Positions 8,660-31,169 of a stretch of DNA of 64,000 nucleotides are shown here, one piece after another. The stretch lies in the IMG/VR virus record IMGVR_UViG_3300044712_000123, one strand, 5' to 3'. Within the stretch, counting starts at the first letter, position 1; each line of letters starts with the position of its first letter. Under the pieces are notes generated by a model. The model searched no databases, was not told where the DNA came from, and saw only the letters and a program-made list of their open reading frames with translations. A program made the position numbers and the translations under genes. The stretch is from a virus (lineage: Duplodnaviria > Heunggongvirae > Uroviricota > Caudoviricetes).

Positions 8660-8724
8660 AGGATAGTAACAGCAACATTTATACTCTGAACTTTTAATTC
8701 AACCAGTAAAAATTCTATCCTGTT
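8660..8724 (+). ncRNA. CAGCAA-module RNA carrying a Lys(TTT) anticodon stem-loop
   Basis: AGGATAG-TAACAGCAA ... TGAA ctTTTaa TTCA ... CTATCCT-GTT. Confidence 0.7.
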
Positions 8725-9450: not shown

Positions 9451-9527
9451 CCTTGAGTTAAGCGGGGCCGCGTTACGGCCTTGCAAATAGTTAGTAATGT
9501 GTACTGCAACTTACACCTCAAGGTCCA
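9451..9527 (+). ncRNA. CCA-terminated non-cloverleaf RNA
   Basis: CCTTGAG/CTCAAGG-T-CCA; GGCCG/CGGCC and TTGCA/TGCAA hairpins; no TTCG loop. Confidence 0.55.
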
Positions 9528-9617: not shown

Positions 9618-9678
9618 AGGATCGGTTCAGCAACTCAAAAGCTAACTTTGGATGTCTAGCGACAAAAACGATCCTGTT
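9618..9678 (+). ncRNA. CAGCAA-module RNA (short; possible Gln TTG loop)
   Basis: AGGATCG-GTTCAGCAA ... AAAAA-CGATCCT-GTT. Confidence 0.7.
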
Positions 9679-10034: not shown

Positions 10035-10154
10035 GCCGCTGTCGTCTAATTGGCTAGGACGCTTAAAAAGGTGACTCTGACAAGAGTACATACAGCAACA
10101 TAAAAATTCCATTCTAAGGAAGTTATGGAGGTTCGAATCCTTCCGGCGGCACCA
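10035..10154 (+). tRNA. tRNA-Arg(TCT) interrupted by a 44-nt CAGCAA-module insertion
   Basis: Removing 10063-10106 gives a 76-nt cloverleaf (CTTCC atTCTaa GGAAG, GCCGCTG/CGGCGGC-A-CCA). Confidence 0.75.
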
Positions 10155-10159
10155 GTTTT

Positions 10160-10282
10160 AGGATACATTCAGCAACTAATACTTACGTCAACTAGCGTGT
10201 TGAGAGTTCGAACCTCTCCTTCGTTCTTATGGACGATGTAGCTCAATTGGTAGAGCAGCCAGCAAGTAAAAAGTATCCTGTC
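10160..10282 (+). ncRNA. CAGCAA-module RNA carrying a circularly permuted tRNA (T-arm, looped acceptor, D-arm)
   Basis: AGGATAC..GAGAG ttcgaac CTCTC-CTTCGTT/GACGATG-TAGCTC aattggta GAGC..GTATCCT. Confidence 0.75.
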
Positions 10283-11693: not shown

Positions 11694-11703
11694 AATCTAT
11701 AAT

Positions 11704-11779
11704 GCACCTTTAGCTGATATGGTTATAGCGGCGGTCTGAAAAATCGTAGAAGTTGGTTCGATTCCAACAGGGTGCACCA
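11704..11779 (+). tRNA. tRNA-Phe(GAA)
   Basis: GCGGT ctGAAaa ATCGT, CCA. Confidence 0.88.
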
Positions 11780-11786
11780 AACAAAT

Positions 11787-11878
11787 GGAAAGTAATGCAG
11801 CGGGGATGGTCCTGCGACTGGCCTTGAAAACCAGGTTCTCTTAACGGGGATGGGGTTCGACTCCTCTGCTTTCCGCCA
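11787..11878 (+). tRNA. tRNA-Ser(TGA)
   Basis: CTGG ctTGAaa CCAG, long variable arm, G73, CCA. Confidence 0.85.
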
Positions 11879-11884
11879 AACAAT

Positions 11885-11977
11885 GGGGTGTCTGGAGACG
11901 ATCAGGTTCGATTCCTGTTTAAGGTGGTCCAAGTCAGCGCGCGGCACGTTAGGGTTCGATTCCCTCTCACTCCACCA
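11885..11977 (+). ncRNA. Anticodon-less Ala-identity tRNA-like RNA with two T-loops
   Basis: GGGGTG/CACTCC-A-CCA with G3.U70; CAGG ttcgatt CCTG and AGGG ttcgatt CCCT. Confidence 0.6.
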
Positions 11978-11983
11978 AGTTAC

Positions 11984-12040
11984 GGGACAAAAAAATAGAT
12001 GCTGACAAGTATCTTAACTGCAATCAAAACTGTCCCGCCA
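11984..12040 (+). ncRNA. CCA minihelix carrying a permuted CAGCAA-like module
   Basis: GGGACA..AAAAAAT-AGATGCT gaca AGTATCT-TAACTGCAA-TCAAAAC..TGTCCC-G-CCA. Confidence 0.65.
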
Positions 12041-12048
12041 AACAATAT

Positions 12049-12125
12049 CTCTGTGTAGCTCAGATTGGTAGAGCGCAAGTTCGGGGAACTTGAGGCCGCA
12101 GGTTCAAGCCCTGTCACGGAGACCA
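12049..12125 (+). tRNA. tRNA-Pro(GGG)
   Basis: CAAGT tcGGGga ACTTG, C1-G72 A73, CCA. Confidence 0.85.
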
Positions 12126-12131
12126 AATTAT

Positions 12132-12206
12132 GGATGATTATTTCAGCGGTAGAATACTTCGTTGACATCGAAGAGGTCAGTGGTTCGATCCCACTATCAT
12201 CCACCA
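12132..12206 (+). tRNA. tRNA-Val(GAC)
   Basis: CTTCG ttGACat CGAAG, CCA. Confidence 0.9.
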
Positions 12207-12213
12207 AGCATAT

Positions 12214-12290
12214 GCCCCTGTGATGGAATTGGTATACATACTAGTTTGAGAGACTAGGTTCTGCAGGTTCAAGTCCTGTCTCGGGCACCA
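12214..12290 (+). tRNA. tRNA-Leu(GAG), short variable loop
   Basis: CTAGT ttGAGag ACTAG, Leu-type D-loop, CCA. Confidence 0.85.
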
Positions 12291-12304
12291 ATAAGGAGAA
12301 GAAG

Positions 12305-12478
12305 ATGAAAACAATTTACTTTGAAAACGTAAGAAACAAAGAAAAGTTCTTCTGCAAAAATCTGAAGGACATTCAAAAGATTGACGGCGTAGATTATCTA
12401 CGTGTGTTCAAGATGGGAACTCAGCGTGATTGTCTAGTTAAATTAGATAGTCTCAGAAAGATTCCAGAAACAAAATAA
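12305..12478 (+). CDS. Small hypothetical protein (57 aa)
   Basis: AGGAG RBS; MKTIYFENVRNKEKFFC...; stop abuts tRNA-Phe. Confidence 0.7.
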   Translation: MKTIYFENVRNKEKFFCKNLKDIQKIDGVDYLRVFKMGTQRDCLVKLDSLRKIPETK

Positions 12479-15486: not shown

Positions 15487-15692
15487 GTAGTGTAGTTTAG
15501 GCTGATGGACGGCAATCTGTTCGCAGTCTGATACTTGACTTCCTGAGACAGTAGCTTTGCCGAGCGAATCACAGGGAAGTTCGATATGGTGGAATTGGCA
15601 AACACAGGTGCTTTTGAAGGCGTCTGAGGTTAAACTCTTGTAGGTTCGAATCCTACTATCGATTTATCAAGCGTCAGCCTAAACTACATTAC
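15487..15692 (+). ncRNA. Long stem-bounded RNA containing a Leu-type tRNA body (15581-15662) with aberrant anticodon loop and no CCA
   Basis: GTAGTGTAGTTTAGGCTGATG / CGTCAGCCTAAACTACATTAC; GGTGGAATTGGCAAACAC; GTAGG ttcgaat CCTAC. Confidence 0.6.
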
Positions 15693-19737: not shown

Positions 19738-19847
19738 AGGATGTTTACAGCAAACAATCGTTTAAGGTTCAACTCCTTATTTTGCCACCAAACGCTCGAA
19801 AGGGCATCGGCAGAGTCGCGCAATGGGCGCAATCTACACATCCTGTT
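19738..19847 (+). ncRNA. CAGCAA-module RNA carrying a permuted tRNA with internal ACCA
   Basis: AGGATGT-TTACAGCAA..TAAGG ttcaact CCTTA-TTTTGCC-ACCA..GGCAGAG-TC-GCGC aatgg GCGC..ACATCCT-GTT. Confidence 0.7.
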
Positions 19848-20098: not shown

Positions 20099-20963
20099 GG
20101 GGGCTTAGCCTCATTAGAATAAGCATAGTGATATGCCCAAAGCGGTCGTCTCCTACAGACCCGCGCTAGAAATAGTTCATCTAAGCAAGCCTGCTTACAC
20201 CCGTGAGGGTGCGATCACTGATAAGACCGGTGGTTGTAACTGTAAAGCAAGTGTGTTGGAAAGAATGTCTGTTTATGTTCCCGTGAGGGTAAGACAGGCG
20301 GACAGAGAGTAACAGGTGGTGCTGACCTCAACACAAAACCAACTTGTCAACAGGTATAAGAAAAGGTAGTGTATTGATTCGAGGGGTTGCACCCAAGAGT
20401 TCGTATGCAGTTTGAGTGGTTAGTGGATATGTATGGTAACAGGCATATACACCGATCGTGAAAGACGACTGAGTAGTTCGCAAGACAAAAGGTACGTGGC
20501 GTGTTGTATTTTGTAGTCCAAAAGATTATGAAGCAACTGAGACAGCACATCACAGTAGGTTGTTATAGATCATTGGTAGATCAATTCTCTGTTAAAGAAT
20601 AGGCAGCAGGTTCAATTCCCGCTAACAAATAAAAAAGCAAAGTCTGTCTCGGTTGTATGTGAAAAGCATCTAATACTGGAGCCGCAAGGTAATTCAGTCA
20701 GACGTAACTCGCAAGGTGAAATCTGTTTATGCAGGAAGTTTCGTAAGTTGTTAGCGCAACTGAATGGCTCGCAAGGTCAGCGGAGTAGAAAGCGTAGAAT
20801 AGCATACAATGTCAAGTCTAATGCCTGACTTAAAACGGCGATGTTGGTAACAGACTAGGATACTCAGCAATGAGGCTTAGTGGAAATCAGAAGAAAGCAG
20901 TCTCGCAAGGATTGTAATAATGTCTGAGGTGTTACTCGGTAAGGATGTATTCTCAGTCCTCCA
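20099..20963 (+). ncRNA. GOLLD-like giant structured RNA (about 865 nt)
   Basis: ORF-free; many GNRA hairpins; GGGGGCT/AGTCCTCC end pairing; ACTGAGACAG/CTGTCTCGGT long-range pairing; located in a tRNA cluster and carrying an internal tRNA. Confidence 0.65.
20559..20629 (+). tRNA. tRNA-Asn(GTT)-like domain embedded in the giant RNA; no CCA
   Basis: GATC attggta GATC; ATTCT ctGTTaa AGAAT; GCAGG ttcaatt CCCGC; TTGTTA/TAACAA. Confidence 0.7.
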
Positions 20964-22060: not shown

Positions 22061-22179
22061 AGGTTCATTTCAGCAATCAAAATAATCTTTCTGTAAAAAA
22101 GAGGGACTGGGTTCGAATCCCAGCAGTGAGTTGGTCTTCACTGTGGTGTAATGGTAGCACGAAAAAAGTTGAACCTGTT
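22061..22179 (+). ncRNA. CAGCAA-module RNA carrying a complete circularly permuted tRNA-Tyr(GTA)
   Basis: AGGTTCA-TTTCAGCAA..TCTTT ctGTAaa AAAGA..CTGGG ttcgaat CCCAG-CAGTGAG/TTCACTG-TG-GTGT aatggt AGCAC..TGAACCT-GTT. Confidence 0.8.
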
Positions 22180-29449: not shown

Positions 29450-29600
29450 AGGATCGGTACAGCAATAATTTACTTTATTGGAACTGATGGATCGCATGGT
29501 AGCTATTGGAGTCTACGGACGTTGAAGGTAGTTATTGAAATGCATCTATCGCAATAGGAGTGATGGCCCTATTCAAAAAGCAGTCAACAACGATCCTGTT
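29450..29600 (+). ncRNA. CAGCAA-module RNA with about 115-nt cargo
   Basis: AGGATCG-GTACAGCAA ... CGATCCT-GTT; inner ACTG/CAGT, GATGGAT/ATCTATC, AATAGG/CCTATT. Confidence 0.7.
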
Positions 29601-29662: not shown

Positions 29663-29719
29663 AGGATGCATTCAGCAACTTTAATCTTTTTCATAATAAG
29701 AGCAAAAGCGCATCCTGTT
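29663..29719 (+). ncRNA. CAGCAA-module RNA carrying a Met(CAT) anticodon stem-loop
   Basis: AGGATGC-ATTCAGCAA..TCTT-t ttCATaa t-AAGA..GCATCCT-GTT. Confidence 0.72.
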
Positions 29720-29744: not shown

Positions 29745-31169
29745 ATGCAATTCGCAGAAGCAATCAAAAACCAAGAAGTTCGTACTACTAATGGTATGAA
29801 GGCACGTAAGTCAAGCGCAAACGCTTGTGTAGACTTGTTCTACAACCTAGGTGCAAGCCGAGGTAAAAACGTTATCCCAGCATTCACTGCGGCTTATGTC
29901 GAGAACAGTGATCTGGCACTGCGTATTGCACAGTGGGCACGTGATGCCCGCGGTGGTTCCGGTGAACGCCAAGTGTTCCGAGATATTCTTGTTCACTTGG
30001 AAAAGACTAACCCAGAAGACGCTATGCGTTTGATGGCGAAGATCCCAGAAATCGGTCGTTATGACGACTTGCTAGTGTTTAAGACTCAGCCTGTGAAGGC
30101 TAAGGCATACACTATGCTTGGCGATGCACTTCGTGCCCGTAACGGTCTCGCGGCTAAGTGGACTCCTCGTAAGGGTGAAGTCGCACGTGAAATCCGCGAA
30201 TTCTTCGGAATGACTCCTAAGCAATACCGTAAGAGCCTTGTTGCACTTACTAACGTTGTGGAAACACAAATGTGTGCTAAGGATTGGGATAACATCAACT
30301 TCTCGCATGTTCCTTCAGTGGCACATGCACGTTACAAGAAGGCGTTTGGCCGTAATGGCACAACTTACGCTGAATACGTAACTAAGTTGGTTAAGGGCGA
30401 AGCAGGTGTCAAAATCAACGCTGGTGCAGTTTTCCCTTACGATGTGTTGAAGGGTGCTATCAACCGATACAGCCGTTCAGCTATGTCTAAGACTGAGTTG
30501 GATGCATTGCAAGCCCAATGGGACGCATTGCCTAACTACGTCGGTGACGCTAACGTGTTGCCTATGGTTGACTCGTCAGGTTCGATGACTTGCGCGGCAG
30601 GTGGTTACAACTCTAAGTCAGGCTTGTCTTGCTTGGATGTTGCACTGTCTTTGGGCTTGTACTTCGCTGACAAGAACAAGGGTAAGTTCAAGGATACGTT
30701 CTTGACTTTCTCTAACACACCAAAGTTGGTTAACTTGAAGGGTAACATCAATCAAAAGATTGACCAAATGAACACAGGCGAAGTTGCTAACACCAACTTG
30801 AATGCGGCGTTCAACTTGATCCTCAAGACAGCGTTGGACAACAATGTTCCTCAAGCAGAAATGCCAGAAACATTGGTGATCTTCTCTGACATGCAGTTCG
30901 ACCAAGGCGTTAAGCACGATGACAGCGCAATCGAAATGATTGCACGTAAGTATGAAGCCGCAGGCTACGCGATCCCTAAGGTCGTGTTCTGGAACTTGAA
31001 TGCCGCTTATGGCAACACCCCTGTCAAGTTCGATAAGAGTGGTACCGCTCTTGTCTCTGGTTTCAGCCCAGCTGTTGCAACTTCTGTATTGTCAGGAGAC
31101 TTGGAAGACTTCACACCAGAAGCTATCATGTTGAAGACAGTTATGAAGGATCGTTACGACTTGTCGTAA
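29745..31169 (+). CDS. DUF2828-family TROVE-like/vWA protein (Ro60-like architecture)
   Basis: N-terminal TTNG..VDLF..RDARGGSGERQVF..GRYDDL..AKWTPR helical region; vWA MIDAS VDSSGSM..T..SDMQFD..VFWNL..VSGFS. Confidence 0.8.
   Translation: MQFAEAIKNQEVRTTNGMKARKSSANACVDLFYNLGASRGKNVIPAFTAAYVENSDLALRIAQWARDARGGSGERQVFRDILVHLEKTNPEDAMRLMAKIPEIGRYDDLLVFKTQPVKAKAYTMLGDALRARNGLAAKWTPRKGEVAREIREFFGMTPKQYRKSLVALTNVVETQMCAKDWDNINFSHVPSVAHARYKKAFGRNGTTYAEYVTKLVKGEAGVKINAGAVFPYDVLKGAINRYSRSAMSKTELDALQAQWDALPNYVGDANVLPMVDSSGSMTCAAGGYNSKSGLSCLDVALSLGLYFADKNKGKFKDTFLTFSNTPKLVNLKGNINQKIDQMNTGEVANTNLNAAFNLILKTALDNNVPQAEMPETLVIFSDMQFDQGVKHDDSAIEMIARKYEAAGYAIPKVVFWNLNAAYGNTPVKFDKSGTALVSGFSPAVATSVLSGDLEDFTPEAIMLKTVMKDRYDLS

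Follow-up and report, generated by a model that had tools for sequence, protein, structure and literature searches.

A CCA-ended 57-nucleotide gene in a jumbo-phage tRNA array, most aptly classed as a minimal, permuted form within a Y-RNA-like family

What kind of gene stands among phage tRNA genes, ends in an encoded CCA, and has none of the D, anticodon and T arms of a tRNA? The question is raised by positions 11984-12040, on the plus strand, of a 64,000-nucleotide stretch of an uncultured freshwater jumbo-phage contig (IMG/VR record IMGVR_UViG_3300044712_000123), the whole of which we call the window. ARAGORN predicts 49 tRNA genes in the window, all on the plus strand between 7.9 and 32.6 kb, and Rfam adds a GOLLD RNA at 20496-20959. 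The window also carries seven copies of a small RNA module, here termed the canonical handle, of the form UUU-AGGAUnn-nnn-CAGCAA-cargo-A-rich-nnAUCCU-GUU. In the 57-nucleotide element the handle parts stand in circularly permuted order (A-rich strand, 3'-type strand, loop, 5'-type strand, UAA, CUGCAA).

Our analysis indicates that a real and conserved gene for a small RNA lies here, which is most aptly classed with a Y-RNA-like family as its minimal variant, permuted and ending in CCA. Ro60/Y RNA particles, tRNA-like Y RNAs and phage Ro60 proteins are already known. New here are the minimal form as a conserved family with covariation and a signature of its own (G-CCA plus mostly CUGCA(A/U)), the GNNA cap as a rule for permuted handles, and the placement of such an RNA as a tRNA-equivalent gene.

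Fold and setting of the element

Read from its 5' end, the element opens with GGGACA (11984-11989), the 5' strand of an acceptor-like closing helix, and continues through an A-rich linker, AAAAAAT (11990-11996), which corresponds to the A-rich strand preceding the 3' stem strand of canonical handles. In the inner hairpin, supported by the fold and by covariation, AGATGCT (11997-12003) corresponds to the 3' strand of the canonical handle stem, GACA (12004-12007) is a capping loop of the GNNA type, and AGTATCT (12008-12014) corresponds to the 5' strand, canonically AGGATnn. There follow a 3-nt spacer, TAA, with the hexamer CTGCAA (together 12015-12023; canonically CAGCAA), a variable 3' linker, TCAAAAC (12024-12030), and the closing-helix strand TGTCCC with a discriminator G and the encoded CCA (12031-12040). 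The minimum free energy structure is exactly the nested arrangement that an earlier, sequence-only reading of the locus had drawn, with a 6-bp closing helix carrying G-CCA and an inner 7-bp hairpin followed by TAA-CTGCAA. At -14.9 kcal/mol it accounts for 62% of the ensemble, with a z-score of -3.71, and none of 200 shuffled sequences folded equally well.

The element is separated by 6 nt (the leader AGTTAC, 11978-11983) from the CCA of the preceding unit (11975-11977) and by 8 nt from the tRNA-Pro gene at 12049, and by this spacing it fills a tRNA-gene slot. Adjacent genes of the array lie 5-11 nt apart, and 46 of the 49 tRNAs encode their CCA. The leader has A at -2 and a pyrimidine, C, at -1; among the array tRNAs, A is found at -2 in 36 of 49 and T at -1 in 39 of 49, and relatives of the element have ..TTAT or ..TTAC at the same place. 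Thus an acceptor helix, one unpaired base plus CCA, and a tRNA-like spacing and leader are all present, whereas the cloverleaf (RF00005) is not, the element having two helices only and a 4-nt loop. Neither ARAGORN nor Rfam calls it, and a 271-nt search of Rfam gave no family at E<=10. No twin of GGGACA/UGUCCC-G was found among the acceptor stems of the 49 array tRNAs. A minus-strand open reading frame (ORF) across the element, 11980-12207, was dismissed as spurious, as it overlaps tRNA genes.

Conservation and covariation in a family of minimal forms

To place the element among its relatives, 80 related IMG/VR records were gathered through the DUF2828 protein encoded in the window (discussed below). 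A model, R1, built from two near-identical copies (the element and its counterpart in record G006), found the element among these records only in G006, the closest large relative (92% protein identity); a 17.9-bit match in G004 proved to be a terminator-like hairpin and was rejected. An exact 20-mer of the element has no match in IMG/VR, and a 22-mer with one free base matches G006 only. The G006 copy keeps 55 of the 57 bases (96.5%), the changes being GACA to GGCA in the loop and C to A in the 3' linker. Elsewhere the two genomes are 66-90% identical where alignable (median 83% for tRNA genes), and two or fewer changes in 57 positions have a probability of 3e-4 at 20% divergence. Because the G006 copy sits between a handle-bearing tRNA and a canonical module, neighbors that differ from those in the window, the element acts as a discrete unit. 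In G003 and G004 the syntenic position lacks the element, and other tRNAs come immediately after the Ser-like tRNA.

Natural variants were collected from contigs of four public sequencing runs (two metatranscriptomic and two DNA, from four studies) compared over 11700-12400, all of which cover the element. The variants comprise an extra A after 11988 (four runs), an extra T in the loop (GACAU), A to G in the loop (GGCA), two 3'-linker changes in one run (T to C at 12024, an extra A after 12025), and G to A at 12001, which converts a G.U pair to A-U. None breaks a pair, and UAA-CUGCAA, the closing helix and G-CCA are constant in the four runs. One 267-nt RNA-library contig spans 11954 to 12218 without a break, compatible with a precursor. 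A look-up of RNA runs with an 81-nt stretch listed none that contains it. The sequence-only reading had been ready to give the element up if neither expression nor homologs were found; homologs exist, and the contigs in two metatranscriptome libraries are weak evidence of expression.

A scan of IMG/VR with the pattern ATCCT-N3-8-AGGATnnnnnCAGCAA gave three kinds of match: tRNA-shaped genes with a capped handle, tandem canonical arrays in giant-virus metagenome-assembled genomes (MAGs), and one second minimal form. This last, at 6985-7036 of L125 (52 nt), begins 8 nt after a tRNA-Glu gene. It has a closing helix GGGGC/GCCCC followed by G-CCA, linkers CAAAAT and TTTAT, and inner strands AAATCCT and AGGATTT around GTCA, with TAA-CAGCAA after them; a 55-nt variant of it occurs in L265. 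Both carry the exact consensus handle (AGGAT/ATCCT, TAA-CAGCAA) in the architecture of the element, and it is because some relatives do so that we regard the inner hairpin of the element as a loop-capped, circularly permuted handle.

A second model, R2, built from the four sequences (the element and the G006, L125 and L265 versions), matched a 64-nt form in L106/L187 and 55-56-nt forms in G107 and G117, and with this simple model the family is readily searchable. A family-derived pattern that was blind to complementarity, requiring GGG, CUG..AAG, C.GCA and CCCGCCA but none of the covarying positions, gave 16 matches. Twelve of these are AT-rich, fold into both helices and occur within tRNA arrays, each immediately downstream of a CCA-ended unit; the other four were discarded as chance matches in GC-rich coding sequence without the fold. 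The family comprises 13 distinct versions of 52-64 nt, all in phage tRNA arrays and 5-8 nt after a CCA-ended unit.

When the 13 sequences are aligned to R2, a fit that favors structure, 97.5% of cells pair and 5 of the 13 pairs show changes on both sides (12 cells). None of 500 shuffles reaches the observed value, and sliding the partner by 1-3 columns leaves pairing at 37-58%. The covariation is present in both helices; in the closing helix it involves pairs 4-6 (A-U/G-C, C-G/A-U and A-U/U-A), and the third pair of the inner stem is U.G, A-U or G-C in different lineages. Loops in the relatives include GUAA, GAUA and GUCA. The hexamer is CUGCA(A/U) in 10 of the 13 and CAGCAA in the other three, so CUGCAA is the norm of minimal forms and no sign of decay. 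The element therefore belongs to a gene family and is neither a chance hairpin nor a tRNA relic, and its earlier description as a CCA acceptor minihelix plus a permuted module holds across this 52-64-nt family, down to the unaltered consensus handle of L125. When the window and L125 versions were compared by blastn with 50,697 cultured-phage records, the only matches were short chance ones in coding genes.

Permuted handles are also found within tRNA-shaped genes. The window has one at 10035-10154 (plus strand), with an anticodon-like TCT and a loop-capped handle at 10074-10098 between the D arm and the anticodon arm; it is the sole other R1 match in the window (12.4 bits). The sequence-only reading had noticed this second copy and given it the same stem length, which is true only in a 7-nt register, as just five bases are paired. 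Nor are the permuted copies limited to two: IMG/VR holds dozens of tRNA-shaped phage genes in which a capped consensus handle of the form nnATCCT-GNNA-AGGATnn-nnn-CAGCAA lies between the D arm and the anticodon arm (L098, L103, L106 and many in L138-L271, as well as 10035-10154). A GNNA loop is present in approximately 35 of 39 such copies, in nine versions: GUCA, GCCA, GUAA, GACA, GUUA, GCUA, GAAA, GAUA and GGCA. The argument that a shared GACA marks a real folded unit does not survive these loops, the GGCA of G006 or the GACAU variant; the conserved feature of permuted handles is the GNNA cap, not GACA.

In both G006 and L106, a minimal form directly follows a handle-bearing tRNA-shaped gene after a 5-6-nt spacer. 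Giant-virus MAG contigs (L107, L109, L119, L120, L126, L136, L172) carry head-to-tail handle units of 65-76 nt separated only by GTAT (..GTATCCT-GTAT-AGGATAC..), and these junctions are a ready source of capped, permuted handles. At Rfam gathering thresholds only tRNAs were found in the giant-virus tandem arrays and in three cultured phages. Circular permutation is a normal route of diversification in the handle RNA family.

Canonical handles and the Ro60-like DUF2828 protein

The reference form of the canonical handle, with a tiny cargo, lies at 29663-29716 (plus strand), directly upstream of the DUF2828 gene; the other copies in the window are at 8660-8721, 9618-9675, 10160-10279, 19738-19844, 22061-22176 and 29450-29597, and stem positions 6-7 covary among them. 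We assembled 165 distinct copies from approximately 1.1 Mb of DNA surrounding the DUF2828 genes of relatives. Throughout this set the stem keeps A-G-G at positions 1-3 and U at position 5, CAGCAA is likewise invariant, and position 4 covaries with its partner; CAGCAA and A-G served as selection criteria for this set, and G3 did not. Rare canonical hexamer variants, CCGCAA and CGGCAA, do occur. The stem of the element, AGUAUCU/AGAUGCU, has 7 bp and keeps positions 1, 2, 4 and 5, with a U.G at position 3 versus G-C in 165 of 165. Its spacer UAA is a common canonical form, its hexamer is CUGCAA versus CAGCAA, and ACAAAAAAAU precedes AGAUGCU as the A-rich strand, giving an internal loop of 16 x 7 (16 x 8 in the handle at 9618-9675). 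The canonical UUU/GUU stem termini are missing: GACA caps the stem, and the RNA begins and ends at the helix equivalent to the canonical cargo helix.

We ranked 16,989 distinct 7-bp hairpins from 2.3 Mb (both strands) by the likeness of their flanks to the handle loop strands. The element and the G006 copy rank 2nd and 3rd, with by far the best stem score, and rank 1 is a mis-parsed canonical module. The likeness of the element to the handle exceeds chance. A loose permuted-hairpin descriptor was abandoned as too permissive (598 mostly chance matches), and apart from the element itself a tighter one picked up nothing but mis-parsed canonical modules.

The presumed partner of the handles is the DUF2828/DUF7788 protein encoded at 29745-31169 (plus strand), and the genome of the element thus shares this feature with the family: a DUF2828 homolog is present in 8 of 14 records with a minimal form, the other six being fragments that are 6-36% complete. 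The protein is assigned by Pfam, by a structural model and by structural matches; a PDB sequence search with it gave no match. The AlphaFold model, based on 66 diverse homologs (predicted local distance difference test score 91.5, predicted template modeling score 0.91), aligns over its full length with Ro60 of frog, human, mouse, worm, Deinococcus and Thermus phage phiLo. These Ro60 structures are the top matches (template modeling scores of 0.53-0.65, E-values of 1e-7 to 1e-9), and the AlphaFold DB clusters for the protein are DUF2828/DUF7788 entries.

The DUF2828 family is present in 702 cultured-phage records, and handles lie within approximately 1.2 kb of the DUF2828 gene in three of the four cultured phages opened. 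Felix O1/FO1a has four copies with AGACCnn/nnGGUCU stems; Mycobacterium phage Faith1 has three with UGGACnn stems, one of them with a T-arm/acceptor/D-arm cargo and a weak YrlA match; and in Listeria phage LP-124 the three copies have AGGAAnn and AGAGAGC stems. In every case nnn-CAGCAA is present and an A-rich strand lies opposite. These three phages are 32-39% identical at the protein level, and their handle stems differ yet pair. In the fourth, Cronobacter phage GAP32, a descriptor scan found no handle within 6 kb of the DUF2828 gene. The presumed link between handles and DUF2828 proteins comes from this repeated gene neighborhood across very distant phages. Among the papers searched, we found none on DUF2828 in phages and none on the CAGCAA handle. 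RNA-repair genes are seen beside the DUF2828 gene in two of these phages: in GAP32 (L095) the gene immediately upstream encodes an RNA ligase and a gene for a CCA-adding enzyme lies 4 kb downstream, and LP-124 (L097) has an RtcB-like ligase and a second RNA ligase downstream. Pfam matches of the window ORFs near the element are to HNH endonucleases, a SAM synthetase and a cell-wall hydrolase, with no RNA-repair enzyme among them.

Several other units of the array are of related interest. At 11787-11878 lies a 92-nt CCA-ended class-II tRNA-like gene with the anticodon loop CUUGAAA (UGA, Ser). It is uncalled by ARAGORN and by the Rfam tRNA model, gives a weak tRNA-Sec match (34.9 bits; gathering score 47), and is conserved at 78-91% identity in G003, G004, G006, G008, G011 and G013. 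The unit directly before the element, 11885-11977 (93 nt), also ends in CCA; it has two GGTTCGATTCC T-arm-like hairpins and lacks an anticodon arm. G006 does not carry it, and because one DNA contig joins 11875 directly to 11975, skipping it, we consider it an indel. A third, at 9451-9527, is a 77-nt CCA-ended non-tRNA unit with a closing helix CCTTGAG/CTCAAGG and T-CCA, a GC-rich hairpin, and a second hairpin with CTGCAA in its loop. A handle-like closure, AGGCTGA-tgga-CGGCAA ... TCAGCCT, surrounds the ARAGORN prediction 'tRNA-??? (ttga)' (15579-15665) within 15499-15680, and this handle-like unit recurs in L067. Inside the GOLLD RNA, at 20858-20870, the handle-like string AGGATACTCAGCAA has no 3-nt spacer, and a partner strand is missing from the 260 nt searched around it. 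In the natural variant of run X7, an 81-nt deletion at 12122-12202 removes tRNA-Val(GAC). The array gains and loses whole units between strains, and tRNA-finders overlook a class of CCA-ended genes in phage tRNA arrays.

Interpretation and comparison with known systems

In our judgment the element is probably a gene for a non-coding RNA of approximately 57 nt, a permuted minimal Y-RNA-like handle that docks the Ro60-like protein and displays an acceptor end. The observations behind this reading are the structure, its conservation with covariation, the tRNA-like placement, the identity of the inner module as a handle, the linkage of handles to DUF2828 genes and the Ro60-like fold of the protein; from them we infer that the RNA is transcribed and matured, that it binds the protein, and what the displayed end serves and with which partner. 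The element would be transcribed along with the tRNA array, RNase P would cut before G11984, and 3' trimming would halt at the encoded G-CCA. This tRNA-type maturation is the most likely route because the leader matches those of the array tRNAs, the 3' end is an encoded G-CCA, and YrlA offers a precedent. One part of the product, the GNNA-capped 7-bp hairpin with UAA-CUGCAA and the facing A-rich strand, would reproduce the canonical stem-plus-internal-loop platform, and this capped stem with C(A/U)GCAA is the most likely docking site for the Ro60-like DUF2828 protein of the phage. The second part, a 6-bp helix whose ends are free and which carries G-CCA on its 3' side, would mimic the acceptor end of a tRNA, so that the RNA would correspond, in a single piece, to a Y RNA that RNase P has cut and that bears a CCA tail.

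The acceptor end would give tRNA-type maturation and protection from exonucleases, and the particle may display it to enzymes or host toxins that recognize tRNA 3' ends; most likely it is both a maturation and stability device and a displayed part. The end might be read by a CCA-adding enzyme, by a synthetase or exonuclease, or by a host toxin directed at the 3' ends of tRNAs. A bolder form of the idea, in which the acceptor end is bait on the Ro60-like ring and its G73-CCA is the target of an enzyme of the host, or of a toxin directed against phages, that works on tRNA 3' ends and would charge, extend or cut it, seems to us rather improbable. If it were true, the particle would soak up the activity, or sense it and hand the damaged end to repair or decay enzymes, and would be a defense or counter-defense device made from the smallest possible tRNA mimic.

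A number of observations weigh against a protein-docking, tRNA-processed handle. The element departs twice from what is constant in the canonical handles of its own genome, once in the third stem pair (G3-C) and once in the A of CAGCAA, and for this reason equal DUF2828 binding should not be assumed. Because of the same deviations (the U.G third pair and CUGCAA), a position weight matrix from the canonical copies gives the element 4.9 and 6.1 bits, where the medians for those copies are 26 and 16. The capped stem is without UUU/GUU termini, and docking would differ if the protein reads those ends. The closing helix of minimal forms is 5-7 bp, compared with the 12-bp acceptor/T stack of standard RNase P substrates. 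The RNA-library contigs may stem from DNA carry-over or from unprocessed precursor, and the alignment behind the pair counts leans toward structure by its construction. The element is dispensable, since it is absent from G003, G004 and G005, records that are 97-100% complete. Finally, a presumed relative of the window protein can act without such RNAs, because Bas63 gp130, a Ro60-like protein of a Felixounavirus, counters the Ppl defense from a plasmid without phage RNAs (bioRxiv 10.1101/2024.10.10.617714), the sole functional result for the protein family.

The evidence for processing and docking also fits a handle without cargo, whose acceptor-like helix and CCA serve as a maturation and stability cassette only and which acts as an empty competitor, regulator or buffer of the Ro60-like protein. 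The closing helix is indeed short and variable in length, and canonical short handles with a tiny cargo exist, such as that at 29663-29716. We nevertheless consider this unlikely, given that exactly one unpaired base plus CCA is kept in every member (partly demanded by the search pattern), that a plain hairpin with UUU/GUU ends would serve without permutation, and that the minimal forms have a hexamer of their own in 10 of 13, which suggests a specialized interaction rather than a simple competitor. We also give little credence to a free mimic of the tRNA top half, independent of the Ro60-like protein, in which the helices stack as a 12-13-bp NCCA minihelix that is charged, CCA-repaired or attacked by enzymes reading the acceptor/T-arm half of tRNA, the likeness to handles being ancestry. 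The helices do total 12-13 bp in all lineages (6+7, 5+7, 7+6, 6+6-7), and deviation at two invariant handle positions is expected if docking was lost; but UAA-C(A/U)GCAA and the A-rich strands are conserved across lineages with differing stems, which mere ancestry would not lead one to expect, L125 and L265 retain the full consensus handle, and there is no T-loop-like sequence.

That the element is a functionless chance hairpin, or the decaying remnant of a handle-bearing tRNA gene, is very improbable. Its absence from most relatives, complete genomes included, its non-consensus hexamer and stem, and its position next to a handle-bearing tRNA in G006 and L106, as a partial duplicate might lie, would all suit a remnant. 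A remnant would not be expected to be 96.5% conserved against a background of roughly 75-80%, to recur in thirteen versions with compensatory changes and in natural variants that spare every pair, or to give the best permuted-handle match among the 16,989 hairpins.

As the smallest such RNA, the element offers a clean 57-nt reagent for asking whether the stem-plus-C(A/U)GCAA platform is what the Ro60-like DUF2828 protein recognizes, and for learning which enzymes or toxins are attracted by the displayed 3' end. Since a protein of the same family is reported to counter the Ppl defense, handle RNAs may also bear on phage counter-defense.

With the canonical CAGCAA handle the element shares a 7-bp A-G stem, the UAA spacer, C-N-GCAA, an opposing A-rich strand and a 16 x 7 loop leading to the cargo helix; it differs in being permuted, with a capped stem and its ends at the cargo, and in having U.G for G3-C and CUGCAA for CAGCAA. 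Synthetic tRNA acceptor minihelices and microhelices are model substrates of RNase P, of the CCA-adding enzyme and of several aminoacyl-tRNA synthetases. The element resembles them in its short helix with one unpaired base plus CCA, but is natural and gene-encoded, with a conserved internal loop and a second hairpin, and has no T-loop.

Dictyostelium Class I RNA (RF01414) resembles the canonical handle in its short terminal stem, its UUACAGCAA-type motif and its length of approximately 55 nt. The window sequence 29664-29717 aligns with this family end to end at 26.6 bits (E = 0.005), and a canonical handle at 5526-5572 of L096 at 18.9 bits, both below the gathering score of 41.5; the 57-nt element has no RF01414 match. 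Class I RNAs, whose ends pair in a short stem with an 11-nt motif beside its 5' strand, bind the RNA-recognition-motif protein Rnp1A and reportedly occur in Dictyostelia alone (Kjellin et al. 2021, PMC7919456). The genomic setting recurs in Bas63, where a Ro60-like gene lies directly upstream of a phage tRNA array; members of the genus carry DUF2828 homologs, and the authors guessed that some 'tRNA' genes are Y RNAs (bioRxiv 10.1101/2024.10.10.617714); it differs from the present case in that no partner RNA was defined there.

With the Y RNAs of Ro60 particles, YrlA (RF02553) and the Yrl1/2 RNAs of phage phiLo (PMC12135203), the element shares a docking stem beside a large internal loop, an A-rich 3' strand, a tRNA-like module, and a gene near that of a Ro60-fold protein. 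It has no GNCGAA/CGAA motif, no T arm and no RF02553 match at E<=10 (271 nt); its RNA ends are on the cargo side, and Pfam places the protein in DUF2828/DUF7788 rather than in TROVE. In phiLo, the Ro60-Yrl complex has been seen to recruit the host's PNPase in vitro (PMC12135203). The nearest precedent for the proposed processing is YrlA of M. smegmatis, a Y RNA bound by the Ro60 protein Rsr, which is cut by RNase P and gains CCA in vivo; its 7-bp acceptor-like stem is processed to an open, CCA-tailed acceptor end on the Ro60 particle (Chen et al. 2014, PMC4201824). The two have in common a Ro60-partner RNA with an opened acceptor stem, a free RNase P 5' end, a CCA 3' end and an intact Ro-binding stem. 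YrlA ends up as two pieces of a 147-nt RNA that has T and D arms, and its CCA is added after transcription, whereas the element is one 57-nt piece with a GNNA-closed docking stem, no T or D arms, an encoded CCA and a DUF2828-type partner, its processing being deduced. Y RNAs and Ro60 have long been studied as a pair; here phages encode separate small handle-RNA genes, each showing one piece of a tRNA, and the element, a bare CCA-ended acceptor helix on its handle, is the smallest of them.

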